Shown here: in pieces, positions 5,898-41,163 of the stretch
Layout: every line of letters begins with the position of its first letter
Position numbering within the stretch: position 1 is the stretch's first letter
Source of the DNA: a virus
Taxonomy: Duplodnaviria; Heunggongvirae; Uroviricota; Caudoviricetes
DNA length: 45,562 bases
Direction: 5' to 3' (one strand)
IMG/VR virus record: IMGVR_UViG_3300029705_000023
Coordinates: 1-45,562 of that record
Notes under the pieces: generated by a model
Databases searched by the model: none
The model's input: the letters and a program-made list of their open reading frames with translations, nothing else
What the model was told of the DNA's origin: nothing
Position numbers and translations under genes: made by a program

Positions 5898-5908
5898 CCA
5901 AAAGAAAT

Positions 5909-5936: not shown

Positions 5937-5949
5937 TAAAGGAATAAAA

Positions 5950-9183: not shown

Positions 9184-9347
9184 ATCGCTTCTCCTTTTCT
9201 AAAAACATTGAAAACTAACCACACGGTCTTATTATATGCCGCAATTTCGCCTTCTATTTAATAGAACGCACGCGCGTTACAGAATGCTCGATATTTTTTT
9301 ACTTTTTTTGAAAAAAATGTAAAATAACGGAATAAAGGAGAACCACT

Positions 9348-16203: not shown

Positions 16204-16444
16204 GGACCTGAATCAGCTCCTCAAGGAGATCGGATCGGTCTCTACCGAGCGGGCAAGCTATGTGGAGACGATCCGAAATCTGCCGAAAGACATCGCGGAT
16301 CAGATCGAAAACAGAGACCCATCCCTTTGGTGGGTCTCTTTTCGTCCGATCCACGACGAAACGCTTCTGGGTCCCTTTGAGACCCGTTCCGAAGCACTGA
16401 AAGCGGAATCTGACTATCTCCGGCAGTGGATGAAAGTCAGCTGA
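16178..16444 (+). CDS. small protein associated with the AAA/DUF1257 cluster
   Basis: WWV...LLGPFETRSEALKAE..YL motif. Confidence 0.55.
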   Translation: MIIKAVYDEDLNQLLKEIGSVSTERASYVETIRNLPKDIADQIENRDPSLWWVSFRPIHDETLLGPFETRSEALKAESDYLRQWMKVS

Positions 16445-17585: not shown

Positions 17586-17588
17586 GAT

Positions 17589-18635: not shown

Positions 18636-19233
18636 AACAGGATCCCCGCTGGAAAGCTATCTGGTAGGGGAACAGGTAAACCTCTTTCTGGAAATGAACA
18701 GCTGGTCCGTGAGCCGGCTGTTTTCATTTTTGCAGAAAAACAGCGGCGTGTCACGCTACTTCTATGACTACATCCGAAAGCTGTCGCGCCGGTTCAATAT
18801 GACCCGCATTGAAGAACACATCCAGCTGGGCGAGTTTAATGATTCCCCGCTGACGGATGCAAAGCTGCGTGCGGTCATGCGCTGCCGACCCGAAGCTGCT
18901 AAAAAAGCCTTGTGCTACGTAGTTTCACATCATGTCAGCGCGGCTGCTGCGGAACGGTGGTTCGAGAAGCAGGGATTCATCGCCAAGCGGGATGAGTCTG
19001 TCTTTCAGACGCAGCTGCGGCTCCTTCAGGCGGCGCATCAGGAATACGAGGAGCAGGTGGATCGGTTCGCGAGGACGTACCGCCGTCTTCCCGGAACGGA
19101 AACCGCGGATGAAGCTGCCGCCCGCCGCAAGCTCAAGACGAAGCTCCGTCCGAAAGCGCATAAGAAGCTCTTGGTGGTTCTGACGGATTCCGGACCGATC
19201 ACCGGCAGCGGCTCGGCTTTCGGGTCAGACTGA
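18565..19233 (+). CDS. helical DNA-binding-like protein (ParB/DUF1016-N-like), probable paralog of 38063-38938
   Basis: YLVGEQV...GVSR.F....RKLSRRF...LTDAKLR...VS pattern parallels the 38063 ORF. Confidence 0.45.
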   Translation: MEKSMITPGEKEALSRITTVLNHETGSPLESYLVGEQVNLFLEMNSWSVSRLFSFLQKNSGVSRYFYDYIRKLSRRFNMTRIEEHIQLGEFNDSPLTDAKLRAVMRCRPEAAKKALCYVVSHHVSAAAAERWFEKQGFIAKRDESVFQTQLRLLQAAHQEYEEQVDRFARTYRRLPGTETADEAAARRKLKTKLRPKAHKKLLVVLTDSGPITGSGSAFGSD

Positions 19234-21075
19234 GACGTCCCAGTCCATGTCTTCATCGTAGCTGTACTGGATCGACGCGGCATCCGGACGGTAAGGGCTG
19301 AAGTTCGGCCACATATTCGTCGTATGCCAGAGCGCCAGACAGCCGATGTTGACGGCATGAGCAAAATCATCCGGAACGGACGGATTCCGGGTGATCAGGT
19401 AGGCAGGAGATCCAATGCGTCCTCCGGACTTCTCTTCGATCAGGGCGAGAAAATCATCCATCAGCGAGCCGGTGGACTGCACACCGCCGTCGTACTGGAA
19501 AAAACGAAGTTTTCCAGTTCGAAGACAGGTGATGGTGTAGAGCAGGCTGCGTGTCTTGTCGGCGCGGAAATAGCGGCGGGAATGATTCGCGGTAGGCGGC
19601 ACCTCGGTCATCAGATTGTACTTCGCGCTGCCGACATACTGGACGGGTATGGTCGATGCCTGAGGTACTCCGGACTGGATGAGGAACGTTTCACGGAGCG
19701 TTCCGGCACCGGTATAGTCGTGGGCGATCGTATCGACCTGAAACTTCTTCATGTAGTAGAGACACTGTTCTGCCTCCGCTACGTGGTCCAAAGAGGCGGT
19801 AAGACGCTTTCCCCACAGGCAGTCCACGGTACCGTCCGGGAGGATCCCGAGCAGAGCGAGAACGGTGTAGCTGATCGCAGATTCACCGCCGCCTGCCCAG
19901 TCTACCGCCAGCGTCATCCACGCGTAGCGGCTTCGTCTGGCAAGGATCTCCGGAGACGGATCTTCCGGATTGTTCTTCCAGGGGAGACAGCCGGCAGCCT
20001 GAAGGTCCGTCGTGGAGACCAGCTTCTGCCCCGCGTCTACGGATTCTCCAAGGATCTCATTGTAAAATCGGGCTGTGCTGGTATGCGCCGCGCCTTCCTG
20101 TTTCTCAATGAGCGTCCTCCATTTCGCGGCTTCTGCAAAGTGGCAGGGAAGAATGATCTGCGGAACATGATAGCCCGCGAAACGTTCTTTCTTCTCCGGG
20201 ATGCGGTGCTCCCAGTGGCCGGTTCGCGGATTGATCGGTTTCTTGCATTTATGGCAGACCGTTGCCGGACAGGCTTCGGAAATGTCCTCGTGCCAGGGAC
20301 CGATCATGTCCAGCAGATGATACTCCGCTGCCGGGATGTTCCACTCATTGCAATGCGTGCATTTGATGACCCACTCCGCCTGACTGGAGTCCATCCAAAG
20401 CCCCTGGATCGTGTTGTCCATAGACTTAGGCGTTCCGGTGTACTGGATGAGACTGAATCGGGAGGCGTCCGTAGTGGACTCAATAACCGGAAGCAGGTCC
20501 GGATCAAAGTCCTGGATCTCGTCGAAGCTGACCATGTCCGCGGCGATACCTCGGATGCGGTCCGCAGAAAGCGAAGCAAAGGAGAAGATCAGGTTCGACC
20601 GGTTTGGAAACTCGTGATGGTAGATCGTATCCTTGGTGTTAGAATCGTTCCAGAGAAACGGAAGCGGGGAGTCTGCCATCAGCGGCTTCACGTAGTTGAT
20701 CGAGAAACGCCGTACCTGCTCGCCCAAAGGCGTCGCTACCAAAGACGTGAAGTTTGGATTCTGTCCGGGAATGATCAGGTTCGCGGAGGCGGTCGAGATC
20801 GACTTCCCGACCTGACGTCCTGTCTTAAACAGAAGACGCTTCGGGCGGTCGCAGTAAAACAGCGGTGAGAACGGACGGTAGTCCTGCAGGGTAAGCGGGC
20901 GTCCTTTGAACGAGAAGAACAGAGGAAGCAGAAGCTCATAGGTCCGGATGGAGGTCAGCTCCTGGATCTTGCGCAGGATGGCGACCCGGTCCACCGGAAG
21001 GATGGATCGGCCGTAAAGTTTTTCTGCCGTAAGCTGGCGGATGAGGGTCTCTAACTCAGGATTAAAGGAGGACAT
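19225..21075 (-). CDS. terL: terminase large subunit (GpA-like)
   Basis: LLFKTGRQVGKS Walker A, VSFDEIQD Walker B, YTGTPK coupling motif, CxxC/CxxC insert, LAVDWAGG and PDDFAHA RNase H-like nuclease motifs. Confidence 0.9.
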   Translation of the reverse strand: MSSFNPELETLIRQLTAEKLYGRSILPVDRVAILRKIQELTSIRTYELLLPLFFSFKGRPLTLQDYRPFSPLFYCDRPKRLLFKTGRQVGKSISTASANLIIPGQNPNFTSLVATPLGEQVRRFSINYVKPLMADSPLPFLWNDSNTKDTIYHHEFPNRSNLIFSFASLSADRIRGIAADMVSFDEIQDFDPDLLPVIESTTDASRFSLIQYTGTPKSMDNTIQGLWMDSSQAEWVIKCTHCNEWNIPAAEYHLLDMIGPWHEDISEACPATVCHKCKKPINPRTGHWEHRIPEKKERFAGYHVPQIILPCHFAEAAKWRTLIEKQEGAAHTSTARFYNEILGESVDAGQKLVSTTDLQAAGCLPWKNNPEDPSPEILARRSRYAWMTLAVDWAGGGESAISYTVLALLGILPDGTVDCLWGKRLTASLDHVAEAEQCLYYMKKFQVDTIAHDYTGAGTLRETFLIQSGVPQASTIPVQYVGSAKYNLMTEVPPTANHSRRYFRADKTRSLLYTITCLRTGKLRFFQYDGGVQSTGSLMDDFLALIEEKSGGRIGSPAYLITRNPSVPDDFAHAVNIGCLALWHTTNMWPNFSPYRPDAASIQYSYDEDMDWDVSV

Positions 21076-21076
21076 A

Positions 21077-21301
21077 ATGCCTGGCTCTTCAAAAAATTAT
21101 ATTGAAAACAATCATATCAACGACCAGATGGTCCGGGAACAGCCGCTGTCAAAGCTGGACACGGTGTCTGCCCGCCGGTATGACTATTATGACGGATTGC
21201 CGTCGAAATGTGAAATTTTGAAAGAAGATCGGGAGGTTATTAATAACGATGAATCCAATGGAAGATGCCGTGAAAGCGGCTTTGAAGGCGACTCGGGATG
21301 A
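21077..21301 (+). CDS. small hypothetical protein
   Basis: SD AAGGAGG before ATG 21077; divergent from terL. Confidence 0.4.
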   Translation: MPGSSKNYIENNHINDQMVREQPLSKLDTVSARRYDYYDGLPSKCEILKEDREVINNDESNGRCRESGFEGDSG

Positions 21302-22124
21302 ACGGCTGCGGAAAAAGTTAGAAAGTGTGCTGTATTGCAGACCAAAGCATTTCTGCCGTAACGTGCAGCTGTGTCAGTTCTGCATACGGCTCCGCCAGAA
21401 AAATATCTCCGCAAAGATAGAGGCATACAGGCGCAGGAAGGGCATTCTTTACGGTTTCCTGCGCACGGAGGAGTTTCTTCTGGACAGTCTGGATGACATG
21501 AAGCCGCAGTATCAGGTCTTGAAAGACAGGATCCGAAAGATACGGCGCACGATGCCTAAGGGTTCTTCCCGTCTTAGAGGCTGGGTGAGCAGGTACGAGC
21601 TGGTCTGGAATAAAAAGGAGAACTGCTGGTCCTTGCGGGTAGTAACCCTTCTGCTGTTCAGACGGCGGAACATTACTACCCGCTCTCCTTACTGGACAGA
21701 GAAAACCGTTTGGGAGGAAGACGGATCTTTGAAATCAGGAACTCCAAGACACAGCTCCAGAATGAAGTACCTGGGACCCTTAAGACACCCGAAGCAGTCC
21801 GTGTCGGTGATACTTCATTCGTTTCAGCTACCGGAATTCTATAAACAGTCAGCGGAAGCATTGCTGAAGTTTTTGACTTTGACAGGAAGTTCACAGACCT
21901 GGGTGACAGGAGGTGAACTCTTTCAGAAGCCAGGAAAGAGAAAAACGGTTTCTCGACTTAAGCCTGTACGAAAATATAAAATAATCAAATGTAAGAAACC
22001 TGTACAGATTGCGAAGCAGGTAGAGGAACTTCTTCGCAGGAAAGGCAGAGAGGACGTTTTGCAGGAGTCGAGAGGATCTGCTGTAGAAGCAGGTCCTGAA
22101 GTCTGTTTTCAAGAAAGGATCTAA
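21249..22124 (+). CDS. Rep_1 (HUH rolling-circle initiator)-like protein lacking catalytic residues
   Basis: FCRNVQLCQFC..R, GWVSRYELVWNKKENCWSLRVVTLLLF and TGGELF match the Rep_1 layout, but the HxH and the YxxK tyrosine are absent. Very basic. Confidence 0.5.
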   Translation: MNPMEDAVKAALKATRDERLRKKLESVLYCRPKHFCRNVQLCQFCIRLRQKNISAKIEAYRRRKGILYGFLRTEEFLLDSLDDMKPQYQVLKDRIRKIRRTMPKGSSRLRGWVSRYELVWNKKENCWSLRVVTLLLFRRRNITTRSPYWTEKTVWEEDGSLKSGTPRHSSRMKYLGPLRHPKQSVSVILHSFQLPEFYKQSAEALLKFLTLTGSSQTWVTGGELFQKPGKRKTVSRLKPVRKYKIIKCKKPVQIAKQVEELLRRKGREDVLQESRGSAVEAGPEVCFQERI

Positions 22125-22790
22125 AATCGTCGCTAGGAGGCGTTTTGGGGTCTTGATGACTCTTGATACTATCTACCCTCAAAAAATTCAGTCAAAAATC
22201 AAATAAGAGCCAAGAACTTGAAATGCAGGGTACACAGAGAAGGCAGAAATGACTTTTCGCAGGAGAAGACCTTGCAGGACAGGTGACGCGGGAAGGCTTG
22301 CAGAGCTTCAGAGACAGGCTTCTGTGGAAGGCAGGAGTCAGAGACAGCAGAGGCAGAAAGGGTGAAGGAAGAGAGAAAATTCGCGTGCAGCGGAAGGAGC
22401 GCAGCGGATGGAGCGCACGCGAATTTTTTTTCTTTTACCGGCGAATAACTGACTAGTTAGGCTTTAGCGAGCTATGTTATAGCGAGCCAGCTTTTGAGCG
22501 ATAGCGAAAAAGTAAGCCTAACGCAGTTTCGAGTGCTAACGAGAAACTAGTTAGTTATTTGCTTAAGGTAGAAAAATAGTCCACCCAAAATAACCACGCC
22601 AAAAATCTATTGCAAACTGTACGGACTTGTGCTTTTGTTTGCTTTTAAGCAAAATTCAAGAAATCTAATTAACCAAAATTTTTACTTTTTCCTCTTGACA
22701 AGCTCAAAAAAATATTCAGATTTTTTGGAATTTGCTTTCCTGCTGGGTGTTATTGATAACACTTTTGAGACTTAAATTTTTTAGAAAGGA
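22125..22790. other. structured non-coding region, candidate replication origin
   Basis: Largest intergenic gap. Purine-skewed GAAGGCAG-like repeats, hairpin 22376-22427, branched fold 22441-22562, AT-rich tract. Directly precedes the replication operon. Confidence 0.55.
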
Positions 22791-22798
22791 GACGCAAA

Positions 22799-23917
22799 AT
22801 GATCATTTTTGCAGCGGACCTGCATATCAGAAATCACACGTTTTCGGCACAGGGATTGAAAATAAATGACTCCCTGACCGGTTTTCAGCGTGTGCTGGAG
22901 ACAGCAAAGGACGCCAGAAAGTATGGAGAGCCTGTTTCCATCGTTCTCGGCGGTGATATATGGGACACAAAAAGGATAACTCCGGACCTGCTGGAAGAGG
23001 CGATACGCCTTAGAAACAAGTATCTGGACATTCCCATCTACTATATCAACGGGAATCACGACGACATTTTGCCGTCATGGACCAGCTTTCTCGGAAACAC
23101 CATTCATCTGGGACCGGAACCGGTGACTCTGCCGGGGGGTGAAACCGTCTCCGGAATGGACTATACTACCCCCAGAAAAATCAAAGAAAATTTAGAGTCT
23201 GTACAGGTTTCAGACTTTCTGGTCGTCCACCAGTTCGTGGAGGATAGGGAGGACAGTTTCATCAGTGCATCCGTACCTCTGGAAACTTACGCGAGATTCC
23301 CTGTCGTACTGGCGGGGGATATTCATGAACAGCGGCATCTGTACGGGAAGCATACCGACCTGCTTTACTCAGGACCTGCTTATCGATGCAGCATTCCTGA
23401 ACCGGAAGGCGGCTGCCTGCTCCTGTCAAAGAAACGTTTTCTGCTCATGTGCCGAACGCTGAATAATGGCTATAAAGCCATGTATCAGTCGTTTGAGATC
23501 CGTCCCATGACCCATCTGACCTTTGACGGTCCGTTCACGATGGCACGGATCGAGGAGTTCAGACAGAAGTGGGAACCAGAGAGGTATCGAAGGACTCTTT
23601 CAGTCTCACCCCTGACTGTGCTGCATGCAGAGGCGTTTGAAGAAGAGGCAGTAAAGTATCTGCTGGATCATTACGGGTCGAAAGACGGTCTGGATCCGGA
23701 GAAAGGACTGTTTCTGTTTCGAAGGACGGTGCCGGTACAGGAGCGGATCGTACCGTCGGAGAATACAGATGCAGTATTGGCTTCCAACGCGCTGTCCTAC
23801 GCAATAGAGTCGCTTCAGACATATCAGACGGAAGACAGAGTGAAGGAGCTGGCCAGAGATGCGCTGACAAATGAGGATCGATTCTTTGAAGACCTCAAAG
23901 AGCATTTTTCACTATAA
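22799..23917 (+). CDS. sbcD: SbcD/Mre11-like metallophosphoesterase nuclease
   Basis: ADLH, GGDIWD, GNHD, VHQ and GDIH motifs. Confidence 0.85.
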   Translation: MIIFAADLHIRNHTFSAQGLKINDSLTGFQRVLETAKDARKYGEPVSIVLGGDIWDTKRITPDLLEEAIRLRNKYLDIPIYYINGNHDDILPSWTSFLGNTIHLGPEPVTLPGGETVSGMDYTTPRKIKENLESVQVSDFLVVHQFVEDREDSFISASVPLETYARFPVVLAGDIHEQRHLYGKHTDLLYSGPAYRCSIPEPEGGCLLLSKKRFLLMCRTLNNGYKAMYQSFEIRPMTHLTFDGPFTMARIEEFRQKWEPERYRRTLSVSPLTVLHAEAFEEEAVKYLLDHYGSKDGLDPEKGLFLFRRTVPVQERIVPSENTDAVLASNALSYAIESLQTYQTEDRVKELARDALTNEDRFFEDLKEHFSL

Positions 23918-23924
23918 AAGAAAA

Positions 23925-23959
23925 GCCCGGGTGTCGGAAGCTGTAAAGGACACCCGGGC
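23925..23959 (+). other. intergenic hairpin
   Basis: GCCCGGGTGTC...GACACCCGGGC between the sbcD- and sbcC-like genes. Confidence 0.5.
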
Positions 23960-24012
23960 ATCGTTTTGTACACTTTATGATAAAGTCTTGAATCAGGTTG
24001 TAAAGGAACATT

Positions 24013-26115
24013 ATGAAAATAAAAGGATTACAGTTGGTCAATTGGTGCCAGCACCGGGAACTCACCGTGCATTTTGACGCGGGACTGGTCGGGATCCTGG
24101 GTCCTAACGGATCCGGAAAGAGTAATATCATCCGGGCACTGGTGTATGCTCTGACAGGGTATACTCCCACAAACAAGCTGGAGTATATCAGCACCGGGGA
24201 AAAGACCGGATCTGTCGCGCTGGAGATCTGCACGGATAACGGCGCGGAAAATTATAAGATCACCCGCGCCATTCAGAACGGGACTGTTTCCGTGAGTCGT
24301 CTGAACGACGGTATCTGGGAGGTCATCACGAAAACTTCTGCGGATGCCCGGGCCTTGATCGCGGAGATGATCCACATCTCGGCGGACGTGGCGTGTCAGG
24401 TCTTCTGTACCCCGCAGGAAGATCTGGTGTCGCTCTTCCGCGAGACTTCCGCAAAACGGAATCAGATACTGCAGCGGGTCTTTTCGCTTCAGTTTTTTGA
24501 ACGGGAGCGAAAGAAGATCATGGAGATCCTGCAGACCGTAGATCAGAAGGCGGCGGAACTGGAAGCGCAGCTGGTTCTTTTGTCGGATCAGCGGGCGCAG
24601 AAAGAAGCATTCCTTCAAAGTTTCGCTTCCCTGCCGCCAAAACAGACGCTGGAGGATATGCTGAAGTCTCTGACGGAATCCGGACAGGAGACGGCCAGAA
24701 GACTTGGTTCTGTGCAGCTGCGGGCGTATCTGTCTGCACAGCAGGAAAAAGGGGAGGCAGAGCTGCAGATGATACAGGAACGGCTGCGGGAGCCGGCTCC
24801 TGTCTGCGAGGAGACCCGCTCCCGGGCGGATCTGGAGACTCAATTAACGCTTTCCCTTCAGCGGCAGGCGGAGCGCAGCGCAGTGTATAAACAGGCTTCT
24901 GCCTTTCTGAGACTCGCTCCTCCGGAAGAGATTGATCCGGACGAGCTGGATCGGCTTCAGGCACAGTATACCGATCTGGTTGCGGAGACGAAGGAGGCAC
25001 AAAAGCTCTTTGATCTGATCACCGGCTGCGGCACAGAGGGACGCTGTCCCACGTGCGGGGCGAAAACATCATGGACTGAGGATGACCTGCGAAAGGCGCA
25101 GGCACACTTTACGGAGGCGCGGCAGAAGCTCTCGGAGCTGAAATCGTATATGACACTCCGGAAACAGGAGATCGAGAAACAGGCCCGCCGGAACTCGCAG
25201 TATGCTTCGCATCTTGAGGCATTGGAGCAGCCGCTTGCCAGTCTCGGCTACATGGGAGTACCGGCAGAGGTATTCCCTGCGCTGGAGAAGGACTTGACAG
25301 ATCTGGATCTTGAAGTCCATAACCTTAGAGAGTCCCTGAAGAAAGTGTCCGGTCACGAAGCCGCGTCTCAGGCGTGGCGGCAGGAGCAGGAACGTCTTCA
25401 GACACGGCTCGAAGAGCTGAACCGTAATCTTCAGGCGATTCAGGAGAATCCAGTGTGGTCTGAGATGGAGGTTCAGGATACGGCTGCACTGGAACAGGAG
25501 CAGGCTGTTATTAATAAACAGATCCAGCAGGTGAAGGACCAGCTTCTGGAGCGTGTTCAGTATGACGGGATCGCACTGGAGCTGGAAGGGATCTCGCAGG
25601 ATGTTCTCAGGATCCGGAATCAGCTGAAGGAGACGGATCCGGAGCTTCGTCGGGACCTGCACGCATTGGCGGATATGTTCCACATCAAGGCGTTTCCGGC
25701 GAAAGTTGCCTGCGACATCTACAGGAAGCTGACAGAGAAGATCCGGATATACCTGACCGAATTTAACGCACCGTTTACGGTAGAGTTCGTGGAGGGCGGA
25801 GACTTTTTCTGTCACTTCGATAACGGAACGGTGCAGCTGGCAGCCAGACTCTCCGGAGGGGAGAAGATGCTGTTGTCGATCGCGTTCCGGCTTGCGCTTC
25901 ATTCCGTATTTGCGCAGGATGACACCGGCGGTTTCGTGATGCTGGACGAGCCTACGACTTTTCTGGATTCCAGAAACCGAGGCGCGTTGACGGATGTGCT
26001 GAAGCGTCTGAAGGAATCCCCGGTGTTTTCGGATCTGCAGATCTTCATCGTGACGCATGATGAGATGCTGCGCCCATTATTCAATTCGTTAGTTGACTTA
26101 GGAGAAAAGAAATGA
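24013..26115 (+). CDS. sbcC: SbcC/Rad50-like SMC ATPase
   Basis: GPNGSGKS, coiled coil with CPTC Zn hook, LSGGE, MLDEPT, VTH. Confidence 0.9.
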   Translation: MKIKGLQLVNWCQHRELTVHFDAGLVGILGPNGSGKSNIIRALVYALTGYTPTNKLEYISTGEKTGSVALEICTDNGAENYKITRAIQNGTVSVSRLNDGIWEVITKTSADARALIAEMIHISADVACQVFCTPQEDLVSLFRETSAKRNQILQRVFSLQFFERERKKIMEILQTVDQKAAELEAQLVLLSDQRAQKEAFLQSFASLPPKQTLEDMLKSLTESGQETARRLGSVQLRAYLSAQQEKGEAELQMIQERLREPAPVCEETRSRADLETQLTLSLQRQAERSAVYKQASAFLRLAPPEEIDPDELDRLQAQYTDLVAETKEAQKLFDLITGCGTEGRCPTCGAKTSWTEDDLRKAQAHFTEARQKLSELKSYMTLRKQEIEKQARRNSQYASHLEALEQPLASLGYMGVPAEVFPALEKDLTDLDLEVHNLRESLKKVSGHEAASQAWRQEQERLQTRLEELNRNLQAIQENPVWSEMEVQDTAALEQEQAVINKQIQQVKDQLLERVQYDGIALELEGISQDVLRIRNQLKETDPELRRDLHALADMFHIKAFPAKVACDIYRKLTEKIRIYLTEFNAPFTVEFVEGGDFFCHFDNGTVQLAARLSGGEKMLLSIAFRLALHSVFAQDDTGGFVMLDEPTTFLDSRNRGALTDVLKRLKESPVFSDLQIFIVTHDEMLRPLFNSLVDLGEKK

Positions 26116-26414
26116 CAAGAGAAGAACTGTATAAGCTGGTAAGCGACGGAGAGATCCACATCGTGGAGTTCGGCGCCGACAACTGTGCTGCCTGCCGTGC
26201 CGCTGGGATGGTACAGGCGCAGCTTAAGAAAAAGTATCCGGAAGTGAGCTTTACGCAGGTACGTCTGGAAGATTCGCCGGAGTTGTCTTCAGAGTTCACG
26301 ATCGACCGCCTGCCGTACACGCAGATATGGAAAGACAAGGAAATTCAAGCGGAATTTCAGGGGCTTTGTTCGGCAAAGAAGCTGGAAGAAATTATCGAGG
26401 ACCTGAAATCATGA
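26112..26414 (+). CDS. thioredoxin-like protein
   Basis: IVEFGADNCAAC and LP motif; 100 aa. Confidence 0.75.
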   Translation: MTREELYKLVSDGEIHIVEFGADNCAACRAAGMVQAQLKKKYPEVSFTQVRLEDSPELSSEFTIDRLPYTQIWKDKEIQAEFQGLCSAKKLEEIIEDLKS

Positions 26415-27883
26415 ATGTGCAGATCCTGAGGAATGGAAATTCCATTGAGATCCGAGGCGAGCGGGGCACGGCATTGGAGCCGGGGCTCCGTTCTTCTTTA
26501 CACAATACATTCCAGTACACAAAGACGGAGAGGATCCGGAGCGGGCGCAAGTGGCAGTATGTCGCGACACCGGTCTACATGATGGTGGATACGACAAAGG
26601 ACACTCTGATCACGACCTACGGCATGTGTCCGGCGGTCGTGCGTTTTCTTCAGAAGGAAGGGCACACCCTCCAGTGTCAGGACCTGACGCCGCCGGACCA
26701 GAATTATATTCATCTGGAACCGGATCGGTCCGTGCTGGATCGGTACGCTTTCCGAACGGGGCAGCTGGAAGCCCTCGAAGCGTTCATTCAGGGACGCCAT
26801 GGAGTATTGTGCGCTCCGGTCGGCTTTGGAAAGACGTTTCTGTTAAGTGTACTGATCCAGATGTACCCGACGGCGAAGTTTCATATCTGCACCCGGTCCC
26901 GGGATGTTCTGAATGAGATTTACCGGCGTCTGGTATCGGTCACGCCCGATGTCGGAATGTTCTGCGGTGAGCGTAAGGATCGGGATTGCCGGGTCACAGT
27001 AATTACCGCGGACAGTCTTGGACGGCTGGATACGCAGGATGTGGCGTTTCTGATTTTCGATGAGTGTCATCAGGCTGCGGCTCCAACGTACATGGATGTC
27101 CTGCTGACCAAGTACACCGTCTCAAGGATGTACGGGTTTACAGCGACGCCAAAGGGACGCTCGGACGGAGCGGACACCGCGCTGAACTGGATCTTCGGGG
27201 ATGTTATTTATAACATGAACTATGAGGCAGGAGTTCAGGGCGGGCTGGTGGTCCCGATCACAGTCGAGTGGCTTCATTGTTTCGACGCGGACGGGACCTC
27301 CGGAATGTGGAGCGAGACGGTTTCCCGAAACCGGCATCTTATCTGGCGAAACGGGTATCGGAATGCACTGATCTCCAGTTACGTGAATGAGAAGTGTGCG
27401 GAAGACGAGAAGGTCCTGATCCTGGTCTCTACGATTGAGCATGCGCTCTATCTGAAACAGTACCTGCCGGAATTTACGCTGGTACACGGCAATCTGAAAC
27501 CGGATGATCTGTACCGGTATCAAAGGCAGGGGCTGCTTCCGGAGGACTATGTTCCGCTGAAGGCAAAGGATCGGAACCGCATGAAGGAAGAGTTCAAAAA
27601 CGGGACTCTTCGGCGTGTGATCGCGACGGATGTCTGGTCTACGGGTGTAGATTTTCCGGATCTGTCCGTTGTCATTAACGCATCGGCGCGGGCTTCTTCC
27701 ATTTCAGCGATGCAGGGCGGCGGGCGTGCCTCCCGTGTCGCGGATGGAAAGTCTTCGGCAAGAGTTGTGGATATTGTGGACCGGTTTGACGGAACGAATT
27801 CTCCGTTTTATCGGAACGCATGCAGCAGAAAACAGACATACGAAGAAGCAGGATGGACCCAAAGTGGCTGGAAGCGCTTGTGA
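26411..27883 (+). CDS. superfamily 2 DNA helicase (UvsW-like)
   Basis: APVGFGKT, DECH, FTATP, STGVDFP, QGGGRASR. Confidence 0.88.
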   Translation: MNVQILRNGNSIEIRGERGTALEPGLRSSLHNTFQYTKTERIRSGRKWQYVATPVYMMVDTTKDTLITTYGMCPAVVRFLQKEGHTLQCQDLTPPDQNYIHLEPDRSVLDRYAFRTGQLEALEAFIQGRHGVLCAPVGFGKTFLLSVLIQMYPTAKFHICTRSRDVLNEIYRRLVSVTPDVGMFCGERKDRDCRVTVITADSLGRLDTQDVAFLIFDECHQAAAPTYMDVLLTKYTVSRMYGFTATPKGRSDGADTALNWIFGDVIYNMNYEAGVQGGLVVPITVEWLHCFDADGTSGMWSETVSRNRHLIWRNGYRNALISSYVNEKCAEDEKVLILVSTIEHALYLKQYLPEFTLVHGNLKPDDLYRYQRQGLLPEDYVPLKAKDRNRMKEEFKNGTLRRVIATDVWSTGVDFPDLSVVINASARASSISAMQGGGRASRVADGKSSARVVDIVDRFDGTNSPFYRNACSRKQTYEEAGWTQSGWKRL

Positions 27884-28448
27884 AGTTTTTAGAGAAGTTT
27901 ATTTCAGGCTCTACAATGAGCAGAACAATACCAGATACGGAAAGACCAGAATGCCGAGGTATGACGGCGGCACGGCAGTAGACGGGCGAAAGTACAAGCC
28001 GGTATGGCCGTCCGTCGCGCAGAAACTGCTGGACCATGGTTTGGACGTGGAGTCCTATTTGCAGGACACGCTGTCCCGGTACACGATCCGGTCTCCTCAG
28101 GAGGCCGTGAAGTCGGAGTATATCGAAAGGTACAAGCGGGAGCTGCAAAACGATGCGTCTGTAAAGGATGCGTGGGATGCTGAGGAAAAGACCCTTCTTT
28201 CTGAGGTGGAGATCCGCAGGCATCTGGGAGAGGACCCGGTCATGTCCCTGGTGAATGCTGTCTGTGATCCTGGGATCTCTGTTTCGCCGCTGGTTCGGTA
28301 TTGTTTTGCTGCCTTGAATGGCAAAGCGCACTTTGTGAAAGATTTACGGCAGGATGCGTATGAGCAGTATTGCCAGAAGCGTCATGCCTACGATCGTTTT
28401 TGCGGAGGTAGGATACCGCCTGAATGGAGGAGCCATGGAAATTATTGA
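27669..28448 (+). CDS. hypothetical protein between the helicases (true start likely near 27864)
   Basis: Fills the operon gap; overlaps the next start. Confidence 0.55.
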   Translation: MSLTHRRGLLPFQRCRAAGVPPVSRMESLRQELWILWTGLTERILRFIGTHAAENRHTKKQDGPKVAGSACEVFREVYFRLYNEQNNTRYGKTRMPRYDGGTAVDGRKYKPVWPSVAQKLLDHGLDVESYLQDTLSRYTIRSPQEAVKSEYIERYKRELQNDASVKDAWDAEEKTLLSEVEIRRHLGEDPVMSLVNAVCDPGISVSPLVRYCFAALNGKAHFVKDLRQDAYEQYCQKRHAYDRFCGGRIPPEWRSHGNY

Positions 28449-30054
28449 AGTTTTGATCGCGGTGAAGCATCTGATCCGCCTGCCGGTTCTGTATCAGACG
28501 TATGCTTCCCTTTTGAAGGATACCTGTTTTAAGGTGCCCCGCGATGGAATCTATCAGGGAGACAACTATGAGGAGCTGCCGCTTCTGTACCTGTGGCAGG
28601 CACTGAAAAGGTACTATCAGGAGCAGGAGACTTCGGAAGCTCCGACTCGAGGGCTGATGGAGTACTATCTGCGGGAGGTCCTGCGGGATGTATTCGTAGA
28701 CGAGGATCTCGAGTTCAAGCTGGTACAGGACAGGGATCCGGAAAGCGGTTTTCTGGCGTATGTCTTTGACGACGAGGACGAGCTGAACACGGTGATCGGA
28801 ACATCGCTCATGCGCCGGTTCCTTGAGGACCGTGTCGTGACGAGCGGTCTGTATGCGCTTCGATCTTTTCAGGAGGAAGAGGCGCTTACGGATAAGCTGG
28901 AGTCGTTGGCGGAGCAGGCGCGGATGATCCAGACTGCCGGTACGACGGACAGTGCGGAACTGCCGTTTACGGACGAGTTCTTTGACTCGCTTCCTGAGGA
29001 GACGCCGCGGCAGCCTACCGGGGTTCCGTATCTTGACCGGGCGCTTGGCGGAGGTGAAGCTCCGGGAGAGTGCTATTGTGTCATGGGGGCTACCGGCGCG
29101 GGAAAAACGACTTTCGCGGTCAGCACCGCCGTCAGCTGTGCCCGGCAGTCTTTCGCGGAGTCCTGCCGAACGGGTGCGGCGCCTCAGCTGGTCCTGTACT
29201 ACACCTATGAGGAGAATCGGGATGCACAGCTGCGGAGGTTTCTCTCCTCGGGAGCCAGTATCCGGCGGGACCGGATCTCGATCTCCCGGGACGCGGATCA
29301 TGGGATTATTCGTCCGGTCTCCACCGGGATGAACAACGCCTATGAGTATGAGCTGCGCCGCTGGCCGAACGGCATCACACAGTTTGAGCGGGAGCGGTAC
29401 AATCAGTTCAGTCAGATCGCCAACAAGACGATCCGGATCAGAAACTTTTCCGGTGTTCCGGACCTGACGGATACTCCGGAGAGTGCCGCGGTCAAGCGAA
29501 AGATGGGCTGCGGCGGTGTCATGGAGATCCTGATGGACGCCCGGCGTATTCAGGAACAGTGCGGAACAACGATCCGGTCGATCTTCATTGACTATATCGG
29601 TCTGCTGTGCATGCGGCAGGCGAATTACAACAATGACGAGTACTATGGACGGCTGAAGTCCATCGGCGACGAGCTTCGCATGAAGCTGGCCGGGGAACTG
29701 AACTGTGCGGTCTGGGTCATGCACCAGCTTTCCGGTGTGGCGAACAGCTACTCACCTCTTCGCAAGCCTTCGCTTGCAGATGGTGAAGGCTGCAAGAGCC
29801 TGCCGGTAAACATGCAGCTGTGTCTTGTTCTGGGGGTTCCGGACGGGGCGCAGCGCAGAGGCTGCGGAGGACCCCGGCTTTATTGTGTTGCGGCAAAGCA
29901 GCGCAACGCCGGGTGCACAGACATGCGGGACGGGATCATTCTTCAGCATGATGAGGATTTCGTTCGGCTGAATGAAGTTACGTCGCAGTTCCGTCCGAAT
30001 CCGCGTCTTCGCGGGTTTGAGCGGAGAGGCAATGATCGGGCTGAAATGCTTTAG
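28435..30054 (+). CDS. dnaB: DnaB-like replicative helicase
   Basis: PTGVPYLDRALGGG, GATGAGKT, YTYEE, IFIDYIG, VMHQL. SD GGAGG. Confidence 0.8.
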   Translation: MEIIEVLIAVKHLIRLPVLYQTYASLLKDTCFKVPRDGIYQGDNYEELPLLYLWQALKRYYQEQETSEAPTRGLMEYYLREVLRDVFVDEDLEFKLVQDRDPESGFLAYVFDDEDELNTVIGTSLMRRFLEDRVVTSGLYALRSFQEEEALTDKLESLAEQARMIQTAGTTDSAELPFTDEFFDSLPEETPRQPTGVPYLDRALGGGEAPGECYCVMGATGAGKTTFAVSTAVSCARQSFAESCRTGAAPQLVLYYTYEENRDAQLRRFLSSGASIRRDRISISRDADHGIIRPVSTGMNNAYEYELRRWPNGITQFERERYNQFSQIANKTIRIRNFSGVPDLTDTPESAAVKRKMGCGGVMEILMDARRIQEQCGTTIRSIFIDYIGLLCMRQANYNNDEYYGRLKSIGDELRMKLAGELNCAVWVMHQLSGVANSYSPLRKPSLADGEGCKSLPVNMQLCLVLGVPDGAQRRGCGGPRLYCVAAKQRNAGCTDMRDGIILQHDEDFVRLNEVTSQFRPNPRLRGFERRGNDRAEML

Positions 30055-30062
30055 GAGGACCT

Positions 30063-31118
30063 ATGCAAAATCCCAGACTGTATCTGAAGCTGCAGGAACT
30101 TTTTGGTGAGGTTCGTGTAGCCCGGGCGGGAGAGACGGGTGATCCTCCTGAGGTTTATAAAGATCCGGTAACAGGCAAATGGTTTACCCGCTATGTTACG
30201 GGAATGAATCATGGGGAGGAGTATCATGTCTGCTGCCCGTTCTGTCAGGATACCGGCTTTCACCTGTATATTAATCACCAGTACGGGCTGAGTGATCCGT
30301 ATGGCAACGCGATCCGGCTTGCGAACTGCTATCACAAATGTCTTGAGAAACCGGAAAACCGAAACCGGCTTTTTCAGGATGTCGCGGTAGCTTATCGGAC
30401 ACAGCCTGTCAACATGGCGCTTGCGAAGAAACTTCAGAAGACGCCGCCTCCGGCGGTGGTGCGTCCGGTGCCGGTGCTGGAAAATGTTCGGCTTCTGTCG
30501 GATCTTCCTCCCGAACATTCGGCAAATCAGTATTTATTGTCCAGGGGTTTTGATCTTTCTATTGCGAAAACGTTTCAGCTTGGTTATTACGAGAATGAGA
30601 GGGCGTCGTCTGTCATCGAGAAGATGGCGAACGGACGGCTGATCATTCCGATCTGTCAGGGTCACGTTCAGGTGGGCTGGCAGGCCAGAAAAATTTCAGA
30701 CAGTGCGAGAGGGCCGAAGTATTTCACTTCACCCGGATTGTCTGTCGGAAGCGTTTTGTACAATTTTGACGCGGCCCGGAAGGGAGCATACGTGGTGCTC
30801 ACAGAAGGGGTCGCGGATGTATGGCGGATAGGAGATCCTGCCGTATGTCTTTTTGGGAAGGCATTATCCCTTGGTCAGAAAAGTCTGATCCTGAAAGAGT
30901 TGAGCGGCAAAAAGATAGTGGTTATGTTAGACCGTGACGCGGAAGCGGACGGGAATCGTATCGTGCAGCAGCTGCGGAATGCAGGTGCGGCAGATGTTCA
31001 ATTTCTGGGGATACCTGAAGGATATAACGATCCTGGTGAAACTCCGCCATACATGCTGGAAACCTTTATTAAGGAGAAGCTGTATGGAAAATCGAGTGAC
31101 TCTGGAACAGGTCTATGA
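30063..31118 (+). CDS. dnaG: DNA primase (Zn finger + TOPRIM)
   Basis: CPFCQD..H, YLLSRG, GWQARK, PKY, LTEGVADV, LDRD, DPGE. Confidence 0.88.
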   Translation: MQNPRLYLKLQELFGEVRVARAGETGDPPEVYKDPVTGKWFTRYVTGMNHGEEYHVCCPFCQDTGFHLYINHQYGLSDPYGNAIRLANCYHKCLEKPENRNRLFQDVAVAYRTQPVNMALAKKLQKTPPPAVVRPVPVLENVRLLSDLPPEHSANQYLLSRGFDLSIAKTFQLGYYENERASSVIEKMANGRLIIPICQGHVQVGWQARKISDSARGPKYFTSPGLSVGSVLYNFDAARKGAYVVLTEGVADVWRIGDPAVCLFGKALSLGQKSLILKELSGKKIVVMLDRDAEADGNRIVQQLRNAGAADVQFLGIPEGYNDPGETPPYMLETFIKEKLYGKSSDSGTGL

Positions 31119-31620
31119 AGCGTATCACAAAATGAAGTGGTGCATTTTCAGGCAGGGGATCCCGTATCTTCCGCCGTGGATGGATGCGGAGGACCTCTGG
31201 CAGGACATTCTGCTTGACGGCCTGAAACGGGTGCCGGAGCTTTACCGCCCGGAACTCGCGGAATTGACCACCTACGTGACGTATCGGGGCATCTACTTCC
31301 TGAGGAACTTCCGAACAAAGCGGAGCCGGAGGAAGATCAGTTTCCTGCCGTTGAATATAGACTATGAACCGGAAGGTGAAGAACCGCTCAACGTGCCGGA
31401 TTATAAAAAGATGCTCTTTCAGATGTCTGCCGTGCTCAGACCGAACATGCGCATCATTCTTCGCTGTAAATGCAGCGGGATGACAGATGATGCGATCGGT
31501 GTGAGGCTGGGCGTCAGCCGTCAGAGGGTCGATCAGTTGTTCCACAGAGCGATCGCGGAGATCCAGAGTCAGTTTGACCAGAAGAAAGTTGACAAATTGG
31601 AAGAAGAAGCAACGTTCTGA
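31084..31620 (+). CDS. phage sigma70-family sigma factor
   Basis: Region 2-like AEDLWQD...LTTYV and region 4 HTH GMTDDAIGVRLGVSRQRVDQL. Confidence 0.8.
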   Translation: MENRVTLEQVYEAYHKMKWCIFRQGIPYLPPWMDAEDLWQDILLDGLKRVPELYRPELAELTTYVTYRGIYFLRNFRTKRSRRKISFLPLNIDYEPEGEEPLNVPDYKKMLFQMSAVLRPNMRIILRCKCSGMTDDAIGVRLGVSRQRVDQLFHRAIAEIQSQFDQKKVDKLEEEATF

Positions 31621-31630
31621 TTCCGTTGAC

Positions 31631-31660
31631 AGGCACCTGTTTCGGCGGGTGCCTTTATTT
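31631..31660 (+). terminator. rho-independent terminator
   Basis: AGGCACCTG-TTCGG...CGGGTGCCT followed by TTATTT. Confidence 0.65.
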
Positions 31661-31677
31661 ATGGAGCTATTAATAAC

Positions 31678-31941
31678 ATGATATATTGTCTTTCCTTATG
31701 GGAAAAAGAGAGAACGCCGGAAGATCTGGCGCGGGAATGGCAGCAGGCAGGAGATTCCGGGTACATTCCGGAAATGGCTGCCGCGGTGCTGGAGCACGGT
31801 TACTGCTACCGGCTTCGGGATCCGCCGGTCGTTCATCTATTTCCGACGAAACGTCTTCTGAAAAGGTGGCTGAAAGATAACGGATGCCCGGAAGACACGT
31901 TGTTTGAGAAAGTTTATTTTCAGGAAGAAAATGTACCATAG
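31678..31941 (+). CDS. hypothetical protein
   Basis: SD GGAG; overlaps the polA start. Confidence 0.55.
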   Translation: MIYCLSLWEKERTPEDLAREWQQAGDSGYIPEMAAAVLEHGYCYRLRDPPVVHLFPTKRLLKRWLKDNGCPEDTLFEKVYFQEENVP

Positions 31942-34900
31942 ATTCCACATTGATGAGGCTCTGGCGGCGGTTTCCGAGATCACGCCGGAGCTTGAAATGT
32001 CTTTGGAGCAGTCGGGTGAGACGCTGCCGGACTTTATTCGCAGGCAGCTGTACACGGAGGAGTCTCCAGACGTAATTGTCAGCAGAAAAGGGAAGTCTCA
32101 GCGCCGCGGCTGGAAGCAGGGGCACCATTTGGATCCTGCTTTCGGAAAGCGGATCGTGGAAGCACAGGTCATGGTCCTGCCGTATGCCCCGCTTGAGGCG
32201 GATTTCTTCTGTATGCCGCAGACGGAGATCTGGCAGGAGCAGCAGGCAGCCTATTCTCTCTGGGACCGGCTGTCTCCCATGCTGGAGCAGGAAGGATTTA
32301 CAGATTGGGAAAGCTGGTACCTTACGTTCCTGGTCAAGTACACCGAGTTCGAAGGGGTAGACCGGATGACGGCGAAAGATGAGCGGGCATGCCGGTTTAT
32401 TTTGGAACAGGAGCTGAAGAGAGTACGTCCGGAGTACATTCTGGCACTGGGGACGCGTTCCCTTTTGTATTTTCTTGGGAAGACTTCTGCCAAAGCGGAG
32501 TCGGTCGTGGCGAATCAGTATCGTGTCCAGTACGAATGTGCGGACGGCACACAGCTGTCGTTTACGATCATTTGTGCTCCTTCTCCGAAGCAGATCCTGG
32601 ATCCGCGTGACGGACGTCTTTACGGGCTGCTTCTTCAGAGACAGCTGAAAGTACTGCACGCCTGTCTGGATCCGTCGGTTGCCGGGGAGGTCCGTAAAAC
32701 AGACTACCATTTCGTGCGGACGGCGGAGGAGCTTCGACCGCTTGTGAAGGCGATCAAGGACGCGGCTAAGAAAGATCCGAAACGGCGTGTGATCGCGGTT
32801 GACCTTGAATGGGAGGGAGAGTATCCGGAGGAAGACGGAGCGTATCTTCTGACGGTCCAGTTCTCTTCCCGGCCGGGTGAAGCAGTCGTTGCGGTCTTTA
32901 ATGAAGGACCGCCTCTGGGAACTTCCGAAGATGACAAGCGGAAAACGGCGTTGAAGGGGGAGCTGAAGAAGCTGCTCCTTCCCTCGAAGAGCTGGAGACC
33001 GCGGGTAGGGGGGCACTTCCTTCGTGCGGACATGCCCTGGCTTCTTCATCTGGGGTTGGTCGAGCGGGATTCCGCGACGAAAAAGATCAAGCGTTCCATT
33101 CTGGATTCGTATGCTGCGCCGGATGAGGAGCTGACGCCGGAGGGGGAACCCTTGTGTAAGTATGAAGGCGGCTGGGATACGTCCCTGATGTATCATGCCT
33201 TTGATGAAAAGGACTCCTACGGTCTGAAGTATCTCGTCGGGAAAGAGCTTGGATTTCCGCAGTGGGATATTCCTTTGACTGATTACATTGCGGAACTGAA
33301 GGCGCGGGATCGAAGTTTCAAACTGAGGGGCTACGGCTGTATCCCTCCGGAGATCCTGCATCCTTATGCGGCGCAGGATGCGGACTACACGAGAACGCTG
33401 GCAGAGCTTTGCATGTTCGGACTGGACGGCAGGCCTGCGCTTCTGGATGAAGATGCTTTTGGGAATCCGTCATGGAGACCTTATTGGCTGGCACACAGGG
33501 CGAGTCTCGGTTTCTTTGAGATCGAGTACTACGGACTTCTTCTGGACCGCGGACGGTATCGGCAGCTCTCTGAGGACTTCCGGTACGTTGCTGATATTCT
33601 TCTGGAAGAGCTTCGCCGCAGGATCAACTGGCCGGAATTTAACCCGGCGAGTACGCTGCACAGGCAGGCGATCCTGTTCAGTGCGCAGGATGTTCCGGCG
33701 CTGGCTGGTGTGCTCCCGGAAGGTGCGGTTTGTCAGAATCTGGCTCCGGTCTACGATTCCAAATACAAACAGCTGTGGGAACAGCTTGAGGATCTGGGGG
33801 AAGCGAATCCGTCTACGGATAAGAACGTGCTGGATATGCTGGCGCGTATCAATCCGGTCGCGCAGCTTTTGAAAGACATCTGCAAGCTGACGCATACACT
33901 TGGGAGTGTCTTGAGTGAGTTCAAACTGGAAGAGGACCTGATCGGCGACCACACGCTCTATAAGAAAGGGCATTTTCAGTTTCTGAGGACAGACGGGCGC
34001 ATTCATTCGCATATGCGCCAGCTGCTGGCTACTGGGCGTTCTGCTTCCAGTCGTCCGAACCTGCAGAATCTGGGAAAGTCCGCGGAGGTAGAGTACGCCC
34101 GGATCCTGGGTACCCAGGAGAAGGACGGCACCTTGTCAGGGGCTTATCTGGATGTACTTGGGGACGCCTGCTACAGGTACCCTGTCCGTACGATCTACAA
34201 GGCGGCGGAGGACTATATCCTGATGGAAGCGGACTTGACAGGTGCCGAGCTGGCGACGATGGCGTGGATCTCGCAGGATCCCAACATGATGGAGCACGTG
34301 CGAAGAAATATCCTGCCGGAGTCGGATCCGGACTTCTACGATATTCACTCGCACATTGCCGTACAGGCGTTCCGGCTGGACTGTGAACCTACCAAGAAAG
34401 GTCTGGCGGCGGTAGGCAAGAAGCATCTGCGGATCGCGGCGAAGGCCGTGGCTTTTGGTATTCCTTATGGGCGCGGTGCGAAAGCGATCGCGTTCCAATG
34501 CCGGACACAGGGGATCGACTTGTCCAAAAGTGAGGCGGAGGGGATCATTCAGACCTATTTTGATATGTATCCCAGGACACGCACTTTTCTGGACACCTGC
34601 AAGGCTTCGGTACGGAAGCCCGGCTATGTCGAGACGCTGTACGGCAGAAAGCGAAGGTTTCATTATACGTCGGTGACGGATGATGAGACGGAGCACAAGA
34701 TGGGACGTGAGTTCTGCAATGCTCCCATTCAGGGGACGGTCGCGGACAGTATCAACGTCGCCATCTTCAATCTTCTGAAGGCGCGGAGGGAAGATCCGGC
34801 ATTGGATTTCCGCATCGTGATGCAGATCCACGACGCGCTTCTTCTGGAGGTGCATAAAGACTCTGTTCTGAAAGTCTACCGGGAGGTTTTTCCCAACGCG

Positions 34901-35038
34901 ATGGTTCGGGATAATCCGGTATTGGTCGGCGGAACGGAGTATCGATTCGGTATCGAGCAGGATCTTTACAAGCACTGGGGCGTTGCGCTTTCGGAAGAGG
35001 AAGCGAATGCACTTGGATTTTCACTGGAGGATCTTTGA
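31931..35038 (+). CDS. polA: family A DNA polymerase with N-terminal UDG-like domain and 3'-5' exonuclease
   Basis: AVDLE and YAAQDAD (exonuclease); TGRSASSRPNLQN, ADLTGAEL, RIAAKAVAFGIPYG, NAPIQG, QIHDALL (polymerase); ELKRVRPEYILALG (UDG-4 fold). Confidence 0.92.
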   Translation: MYHRFHIDEALAAVSEITPELEMSLEQSGETLPDFIRRQLYTEESPDVIVSRKGKSQRRGWKQGHHLDPAFGKRIVEAQVMVLPYAPLEADFFCMPQTEIWQEQQAAYSLWDRLSPMLEQEGFTDWESWYLTFLVKYTEFEGVDRMTAKDERACRFILEQELKRVRPEYILALGTRSLLYFLGKTSAKAESVVANQYRVQYECADGTQLSFTIICAPSPKQILDPRDGRLYGLLLQRQLKVLHACLDPSVAGEVRKTDYHFVRTAEELRPLVKAIKDAAKKDPKRRVIAVDLEWEGEYPEEDGAYLLTVQFSSRPGEAVVAVFNEGPPLGTSEDDKRKTALKGELKKLLLPSKSWRPRVGGHFLRADMPWLLHLGLVERDSATKKIKRSILDSYAAPDEELTPEGEPLCKYEGGWDTSLMYHAFDEKDSYGLKYLVGKELGFPQWDIPLTDYIAELKARDRSFKLRGYGCIPPEILHPYAAQDADYTRTLAELCMFGLDGRPALLDEDAFGNPSWRPYWLAHRASLGFFEIEYYGLLLDRGRYRQLSEDFRYVADILLEELRRRINWPEFNPASTLHRQAILFSAQDVPALAGVLPEGAVCQNLAPVYDSKYKQLWEQLEDLGEANPSTDKNVLDMLARINPVAQLLKDICKLTHTLGSVLSEFKLEEDLIGDHTLYKKGHFQFLRTDGRIHSHMRQLLATGRSASSRPNLQNLGKSAEVEYARILGTQEKDGTLSGAYLDVLGDACYRYPVRTIYKAAEDYILMEADLTGAELATMAWISQDPNMMEHVRRNILPESDPDFYDIHSHIAVQAFRLDCEPTKKGLAAVGKKHLRIAAKAVAFGIPYGRGAKAIAFQCRTQGIDLSKSEAEGIIQTYFDMYPRTRTFLDTCKASVRKPGYVETLYGRKRRFHYTSVTDDETEHKMGREFCNAPIQGTVADSINVAIFNLLKARREDPALDFRIVMQIHDALLLEVHKDSVLKVYREVFPNAMVRDNPVLVGGTEYRFGIEQDLYKHWGVALSEEEANALGFSLEDL

Positions 35039-41158: not shown

Positions 41159-41163
41159 GAACA

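Follow-up and report, generated by a model that had tools for sequence, protein, structure and literature searches.

The window analyzed here, a stretch of 45,562 nucleotides, makes up the opening 45.6 kb of an IMG/VR viral record of 187,654 bp (IMGVR_UViG_3300029705_000023, Caudoviricetes; 94% complete), and our subject is a 291-residue open reading frame (ORF) on its + strand, 21249..22124, that starts with ATG and has no internal stop codon. The product, called Rep-like below, resembles Rep_1 rolling-circle initiators of the histidine-hydrophobic-histidine (HUH) type. Its gene stands at the head of a replication module and is separated by a 674-bp gap from the first gene of that module, SbcD; on its left, the gene for the large terminase subunit (TerL) is read in the opposite direction, away from the Rep-like gene (Table 1). 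An earlier note on this DNA had quoted three peptide blocks of the product as counterparts of Rep_1 motifs, and we find that the ORF is intact and that all three blocks are present and match the Rep_1 consensus. The four-cysteine cluster in the first of these blocks is presumed to be a zinc module. As detailed below, the residues with which Rep_1 enzymes cut DNA have been lost and the gene lies beside the most origin-like stretch of the genome, so that the Rep-like protein probably binds the origin rather than nicking it.

The sequence relationship was assessed against a diverse alignment of Rep_1 proteins from Firmicutes and Proteobacteria plasmids (A4), with the pC194 and pUB110 proteins fetched for comparison. 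The invariant residues of A4, in pC194 numbering, are C37, C60, C65, C68, R71, T99, L100, N104, G136, E142, T144, H155, H157, W179, E210, K213, Y214 and K217, and its consensus blocks read FCKxRLCPMCxWRR, GxxRxTEVTxNxxxxxYNPHxHVLL and KRxIxYGGLLK. The distance from the last cysteine to the glycine of the G..E strand is also similar, at 66 residues here and 68 for pC194 Rep. A single pre-specified BLASTP comparison of the ORF with pC194 Rep gave an E-value of 8e-4 and paired query residues 61-152 with pC194 residues 90-177, a match that covers motif I through the HUH motif. When an alignment of eight family representatives that includes the window protein (A2) was compared with A4 using hhalign, P was 9.4e-4 for the local alignment (100 columns) and 3.2e-4 for the global one, and the real pair scored 33.4, whereas reversed alignments reached 22.0 and 15.7 and none of 40 block-shuffles exceeded 18.6. 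The cysteine cluster alone scored 24.0 (P 7e-4; null maximum 15.4), and the C-terminal part alone was marginal (15.4 versus a null maximum of 13.2, P 0.064); the family's TW-x-TGG-x-x-F block, with its invariant G222, meets I-x-YGG-L of Rep_1 only in greedy or C-terminal-only runs. Three local alignments to Rep_1 were found independently, and these are collinear with matching spacing. Since the cysteine cluster carries most of the signal and the core is not significant, the relationship of the core rests on structure and collinearity; the sequence establishes the zinc module and suggests the remainder of the Rep_1 relationship. Searches of Pfam, PHROGs, NCBIfam and the PDB sequences returned no meaningful match for the ORF, the eight family members or the family profile. 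By the Pfam criterion the Rep-like protein is not a member of PF01446, and the relationship is one at the superfamily level.

The AlphaFold2 (AF2) model of the Rep-like protein (predicted local distance difference test score (pLDDT) 76, predicted template modelling score 0.71) has the order helix, beta1, alpha1, beta2, beta3, beta4, helix, helix, beta5, and its five-stranded antiparallel sheet follows the beta-alpha-beta-beta...beta-alpha order seen in Rep initiators. Foldseek comparison of this model with the PDB found nothing at E<=1e-3. VIA-align against the PDB placed the SIRV1 ORF119 Rep first (Z 7.0, 114/116 residues) and a Helitron HUH transposase second, a result that is only suggestive, and both stood among generic ferredoxin-like folds; Z values of 5-7 were also reached by the GGDEF, Thg1 and ribosomal protein S6 folds. 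Foldseek against BFVD gave 13 matches at E<=1e-3 (best E 2.5e-7), which extend over about 250 columns. Those that carry a name, namely microvirus Rep, G4 A*, NC29 GpA, SMRV1 Rep and HRPV-1 protein 1, all belong to the rolling-circle initiators. As a control, the genuine pUB110 RepU was modelled alongside the phage protein. The secondary-structure order of the two models agrees element for element, both have BFVD entry A0A894JTM0 as their best match (RepU at E 1.6e-16 and 26% identity), and nine of the ten top BFVD matches of the phage protein lie within the top 13 of RepU. A feature search of the ESM Atlas scored 0.97, and the ten best family-bearing neighbors were all PF01446 Rep_1 proteins. 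The structural comparison with HUH Reps proposed in the earlier note came out positive against BFVD, and taken together the models and alignments indicate that the protein very probably descends from a Rep_1/microvirus-type initiator fold. The note had gone further and named a plasmid initiator as the source. Descent from a Rep_1-type HUH protein is supported. The plasmid as donor is not established, given that single-stranded DNA (ssDNA) phages and satellites carry Rep_1-type genes too; most of the canonical Rep_1 genes in phage records are in fact found there.

BLASTP and hhalign agree on a register that lays H155-U-H157-V-L-L of Rep_1 over R-h-T-S-L-L of the family (R130-V-V132-T-L-L in the window protein). 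Across the eight members the column at H155 reads R/R/R/R/R/C/M/R and that at H157 reads V/V/T/T/T/T/T/R, and not one of them has HxH or HxQ on the beta3 strand. Rep_1 G136 and the metal ligand E142 are kept as invariant G111 and E117, and motif I of Rep_1 (FLTLT..N, on beta1) is replaced in the family by LYxFxRxExF. For motif III the order of secondary-structure elements and the distances correspond, H157 to Y214 being 57 residues in Rep_1 and T133 to F192 being 59 here, which sets helix 181-191 and F192 opposite the motif, in line with a low-confidence greedy hhalign run; this segment reads L..VF(PS) in the family, with no invariant Glu, Lys or Tyr. None of the eight members has an equivalent of Rep_1 residues H155, H157, E210, K213 or Y214, and the replacement of the HUH histidines and the motif III tyrosine that the earlier note had seen in one protein is found throughout the family. 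The alignments thus support a family-wide loss of the canonical catalytic residues. With both histidines and the Glu/Tyr nucleophile motif gone, the canonical metal-dependent, tyrosine-linked nicking reaction should not be possible. In pC194 RepA, these catalytic residues are required for nicking and not for origin binding (PMC5703833). The loss would therefore remove the canonical chemistry and not necessarily DNA recognition.

The family is sparse. A word-indexed search of 5.8 billion proteins found the protein's own cluster and a single relative at 70% identity, and six further relatives, at 25-33% identity, were contributed by an exhaustive HMMER search across 1.84 billion representatives. 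No relatives were found among viral contigs searched with A1, P0003 and P0005 or among metagenome contigs searched with A1 and P0007, and tblastn of the ORF and P0007 against phage records gave no match. All eight clusters are intact, with lengths of 249-296 residues, and invariant across A2 are C30, C36, C42, C45, L67, R72, E74, G111, E117, S146, W149, G176 and G222. The members sit on large contigs only (189, 73, 70, 43 and 31 kb), and two are binned into rumen metagenome-assembled genomes (MAGs); small plasmids and ssDNA phages are not where the family resides. The 73-kb contig encodes P0002/P0135 (protein MBQ9692960.1), the 43-kb one P0007 and the 31-kb one P0146. Between the window lineage and the P0002 lineage, which are 69% identical overall, beta1 is 94% invariant and both beta2-beta3 and residues 141-168 are 89% invariant, compared with 41% for the N-terminal helices and 35% for the basic tail, which is present in these two lineages only and missing from the distant members. 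This pattern supports strong purifying selection on the sheet core, and the gene, whose decay would have spoken against the earlier reading, is not decaying; it is intact and conserved in all eight clusters.

The gap that follows the gene has the hallmarks of an origin. Positions 22125-22780 form the genome's longest stretch without an ORF of at least 70 residues on either strand (656 nt; the next is 356 nt), and no 200-nt segment of the genome is richer in AT than 22588-22787, with 29% GC versus 52.6% genome-wide. Upstream of the AT-rich segment lie two strongly folding elements. In the loop of the terminator-like hairpin there are two 14-nt GCAGCGGA(A/T)GGAGC repeats (I3, D3), and a simple terminator scan did not pick up this long-loop hairpin. 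The branched, cruciform-type element contains two hairpins with tandem G.A pairs, at 22490-22513 and 22525-22548, of the design stem-GA-GY-N4-RC-GA-stem. This design occurs three times in all when both strands of the 187.6 kb are scanned, compared with about 0.4 times in shuffled sequence, and two of the three copies are those in the gap, 35 nt apart and both on the + strand. Rfam has no family that matches the gap. As separate observations, the third copy of the design lies at 186274-186295 in genome coordinates, on the + strand and near the record end, and a GA-rich purine stretch occupies the + strand at 22200-22380, after the stop codon of the Rep-like gene and ahead of the terminator-like hairpin, with the short repeats TCAGAGACAG and GAAGGCAG, each present twice.

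A comparable arrangement is found in a distant relative. The contig L008, from a goat-reticulum MAG, encodes P0006, which is 24% identical to the Rep-like protein, and about 20 nt after its Rep-like gene begins an array of eleven tandem 53-bp units (1062-1649). Each unit contains a stem-GA-GC-N3/4-GC-GA-stem hairpin and a second small hairpin, and the array lies inside a non-coding stretch of ~900 nt that is followed by genes for an AAA+ ATPase and an SbcC-like protein. An unbiased k-mer comparison returned AGCGA as the leading word among those enriched in both gaps, with 4 occurrences versus 0.49 expected in the window and 7 versus 0.29 in L008. The link between the gene and a structured non-coding region, on which the earlier note had staked its reading, therefore holds in a relative with 24% identity. 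Opposed GA steps are not Watson-Crick palindromic, and their conservation suggests that what is recognized would be a folded single-strand form, either DNA or RNA. Three further features of L008 were seen in passing: a large inverted repeat with GAGCG/AGCGA words at about 1745-1830; the shortness of the SbcC-like ORF (5496-6116), which at 206 residues corresponds to the N-terminal AAA_23 part; and, at 8745-10501, an AAA_21 ATPase and DUF4276 pair that resembles an accessory or defence-type cassette.

Building on these observations, we propose that the Rep-like protein is a diverged Rep_1 descendant that now acts as a non-nicking, hairpin-recognizing origin binder in large gut and rumen double-stranded DNA (dsDNA) phages, a proposal whose chances we judge to be about even. 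A highly diverged HUH initiator of the Rep_1 type (pC194/pUB110, microvirus-like) would have become a resident gene of a sparse phage clade. The descendant keeps the zinc module with its four cysteines, an HUH-type core of five strands, the sheet surface that faces the DNA and the glutamate that formerly held the metal, and would serve as a sequence- and structure-specific DNA-binding initiator. Its site would be the tandem-G.A hairpins (core GAGC-N4-GCGA), which the non-coding region just 3' of the gene would extrude. Once bound, the protein may mark or destabilize the adjoining AT-rich element, upon which the phage's DnaB-like helicase and primase would be loaded. The earlier note had stated that the phage has its own primase, DnaB and PolA, and this is borne out by Pfam matches within the replication module. 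The broader proposition, that large tailed phages of the gut and rumen independently turned a Rep_1 nickase into a non-cutting, hairpin-reading origin recognizer for a DnaB/primase/PolA replisome, is one we advance more tentatively, as somewhat short of an even chance.

Compared with Rep_1 itself (pC194 RepA, pUB110 RepU; PF01446), the phage family shares the four-cysteine cluster with its C-x4/5-C-x2-C core, the order and spacing of beta1, alpha1, beta2 (G..E), beta3, beta4, helix, helix and beta5 (putative xGG match), the Glu142 equivalent, the nearest BFVD structures and a gene position beside hairpin-forming DNA. It differs in lacking the HUH histidines, Glu210, Lys213 and Tyr214, in the replacement of motif I, in a shorter loop between the first and second cysteines and in escaping detection by the Pfam model; moreover, its members reside in phage genomes of 30-190 kb with their own helicase, primase and polymerase rather than in plasmids of 2-7 kb. 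The best structural matches in BFVD are to gpA of the Microviridae/phiX174 type and related initiators of ssDNA phages, but those are active HUH/Y enzymes of ssDNA phages of about 5 kb.

The closest functional precedent, in our analysis, is the origin-binding domain of papovaviruses (large T antigen, E1), since in the Papovaviricetes an inactivated HUH domain is the origin-recognition domain (PMC13595969). Both have an HUH-derived fold without endonuclease residues, and both belong to dsDNA viruses without an ssDNA replication intermediate. The papovavirus domains, however, derive from a Rep of the circular Rep-encoding single-stranded (CRESS) type and are fused to a superfamily 3 (SF3) helicase, whereas the phage protein is Rep_1-derived and stand-alone, carries a zinc module and a basic tail, and would bind an origin only by our interpretation. 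No helicase domain is present in the 291-residue Rep-like protein; longer fused forms were not searched for.

Another Rep_1 homolog with degraded motifs in a large tailed phage is the 'protein Rep' of the cultured Listeria phage LIS04 (LIS04_163, in a 181.6-kb Thornevirus; OQ999172.1 148545-149297; L016:3908-4660), in which HFH has become TAH, Glu142 has become Gln, the catalytic Tyr has become Val and FLTLT has become VMLKLE. Unlike the family described here it is readily recognized as Rep_1 (E 4e-28 to RepU), keeps one histidine and lies among nucleotide-metabolism and small unknown genes. Other phage records contain no homologs of it except CAK1 Rep. We considered LIS04 Rep as a bridge between Rep_1 and the family and rejected it, as only the cysteine cluster aligns (P 0.0046) and it is no closer than other Rep_1 proteins. 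The sequences do suggest that loss of the nicking residues in Rep_1 genes of large phages happened more than once.

Several observations weigh against the proposal of a non-nicking origin binder derived from Rep_1. The Pfam Rep_1 model finds no match at E<=10 in the ORF or the eight members, nor does a six-frame scan of the whole genome with PF01446 at that threshold; the core alone recovers the same register in hhalign and is not significant (P 0.22); and the residue mapping of motif III is of low confidence, because the signal outside the cysteine cluster falls short of significance by itself. GC skew runs monotonically with gene orientation and does not mark an origin, the hairpin motifs are specific to the + strand and so also compatible with an RNA target, and the linkage of hairpins and gene rests on two loci, the window and L008. 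The alternatives, in descending weight, are a remodelled nickase, an expression regulator, a packaging-site binder and a protein unrelated to Rep. An active nickase with a remodelled site, in which E74 and E117 would hold the metal through their carboxylates, R72 and R130 would position the phosphate and a tyrosine near 198 would stand in for the HUH/Y214 machinery, is unlikely in our view; such an enzyme would nick a hairpin in the gap to start rolling-circle (sigma-mode) or recombination-dependent replication. It gains from the invariance of R72, E74 and E117 and the near-invariance of R130, all on the face of the sheet that was the HUH active site, from the retained metal-ligand glutamate, from the presence in 8/8 members of a tyrosine within about three positions of the semi-conserved Y198, itself about six residues downstream of the motif III equivalent, and from the hairpin targets, which active HUH enzymes also use. 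Indeed, it is the R72/E74/E117 invariance and this tyrosine that make a remodelled active site conceivable, and the R72/E74/E117/R130 pattern would fit either such a site or a salt-bridged, metal-free DNA-binding surface. But no member has a His or an equivalent pair on beta3, an arginine at the first His position is more likely to occupy the metal site than to bind metal, no column holds an invariant tyrosine, the Y214 position being Phe or a gap by spacing and secondary-structure order, and E210 and K213 of Rep_1 are likewise missing.

A regulator of early and replication genes that binds RNA or DNA, whether as an autoregulator or in termination or antitermination, and acts on hairpins of the + strand transcript, strikes us as quite unlikely. 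The HUH fold is RRM-like (RNA recognition motif), the tandem-G.A hairpins lie on the + strand only, which is the sense strand of the gene, and they fall in or after the 3' untranslated region beside the terminator-like hairpin with its T8; in addition, RepU represses its own promoter (PMC5703833). What speaks against this reading is the lack of an Rfam match in the gap, the gap's size and AT-rich extreme, which suit an origin better, and the leading position of the gene in a replication module where no other initiator is recognizable. Recognition of a packaging site, with the protein as a functional analogue of the small terminase that binds repeated sites by the TerL gene, would account for the divergent adjacency to TerL and for the fact that no small terminase is recognizable near it; small terminases often bind repeats close to their own gene. 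We nevertheless consider it very improbable, as the gene reads away from TerL and toward the replication genes, its neighbors in L008 are the AAA+ ATPase and SbcC-like genes rather than packaging genes, its fold bears no relation to those of known small terminases, and the L008 MAG yielded no TerL with the query used. The least probable alternative, by our estimate, is that the likeness to Rep_1 is convergent or due to chance and that the protein combines a zinc finger with a generic ferredoxin-like domain and has no kinship with HUH initiators. The empty Foldseek search of the PDB, the VIA Z range shared with GGDEF, Thg1 and S6, the insignificance of the signal outside the cysteine cluster when taken alone and the failure of Pfam to detect the protein are all in keeping with it. 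On the other side stand the BFVD matches, which are to initiators in particular, reach E 2.5e-7 across some 250 columns and share their targets with RepU, the three collinear local alignments with matching spacing, and ESM Atlas neighbors that point to Rep_1.

Origins and initiators are known for only a minority of large uncultured phages, and if the proposal of a non-nicking origin binder is right, one phage clade would gain a testable initiator-origin pair. The protein would also represent a previously unrecognized kind of phage initiator, matched to a structured origin of a new type, and a counterpart in prokaryotic viruses of the origin-binding domain of papovaviruses. The path that leads from an HUH nuclease to origin binding, established so far for eukaryotic papovaviruses, would have been taken in tailed phages too, starting from a different branch of Rep, and LIS04 is a hint that it has been taken repeatedly. 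The tandem-G.A hairpin, as a protein recognition element kept across 24% protein identity, would then be a new origin architecture, and a non-cutting, hairpin-specific HUH scaffold might be of interest for the engineering of HUH tags. In a non-exhaustive search of the literature, no account of tailed phages with an inactivated Rep_1 came up.

Table 1. Features at and around the Rep-like gene (window coordinates)
Feature	Position	Strand	Description
Large terminase subunit (TerL)	19225..21075	-	Pfam GpA_ATPase 1.2e-10; tblastn to phage terminases
Divergent intergenic region, TerL start to Rep-like gene start	21076..21248	.	ORF layout
Rep-like gene	21249..22124	+	N-terminal helices, four-Cys module, HUH-type beta-alpha-beta-beta...beta-alpha core, basic tail
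Four-cysteine cluster C30, C36, C42, C45	21336..21383	+	Counterpart of Rep_1 C37/C60/C65/C68
Strands beta2-beta3	21579..21659	+	G111/E117 kept; former HUH position is R130-V-V132 (family R-h-T-S)
Helix 181-191 and next loop	21789..21842	+	Positional equivalent of Rep_1 motif III (E210..K213-Y214); reads ..ILHSF..
TWVTGGELF block	21897..21923	+	Putative counterpart of Rep_1 I-x-YGG-L (strand beta5); G222 invariant
Lys/Arg-rich C-terminal tail	21933..22121	+	Predicted disordered, pLDDT <50
Strong hairpin followed by T8, terminator-like	22369..22434	+	dG -19.1 kcal/mol, z -6.1
Branched cruciform-type element	22441..22562	+	dG -25.4 kcal/mol, z -5.1
AT-rich segment, 31% GC	22563..22798	.	Candidate DNA-unwinding element, promoter region for replication module
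Replication/recombination module	22799..35038	+	SbcD, SbcC, superfamily 2 (SF2) helicase, DnaB-like helicase, DnaG-like primase, PolA; Pfam matches

The intergenic region between the TerL and Rep-like genes contains a promoter-like site on the minus strand (21214-21186), and neither Pfam nor PHROGs recognizes the neighbors on the 3' side of TerL, at 17547-19233 and 16437-17585. Five clustered tRNA genes lie at 41075-41608 and include Leu-TAA, Thr-TGT, Val-TAC and Ile-TAT; one tRNA of the cluster (41252-41327), with an odd anticodon loop, has no ARAGORN assignment. Within the replication module, the match of the DnaB-like helicase (28354-30054, 566 residues) to DnaB_C is confined to residues 389-476, and residues 221-305 match AAA_25/KaiC, which suggests an insertion in, or an unusual split of, its ATPase domain. 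The PolA product (31904-35038, 1044 residues) carries an N-terminal domain of the uracil-DNA-glycosylase superfamily (Pfam UDG, residues 121-232) that precedes the 3'-5' exonuclease and polymerase domains.

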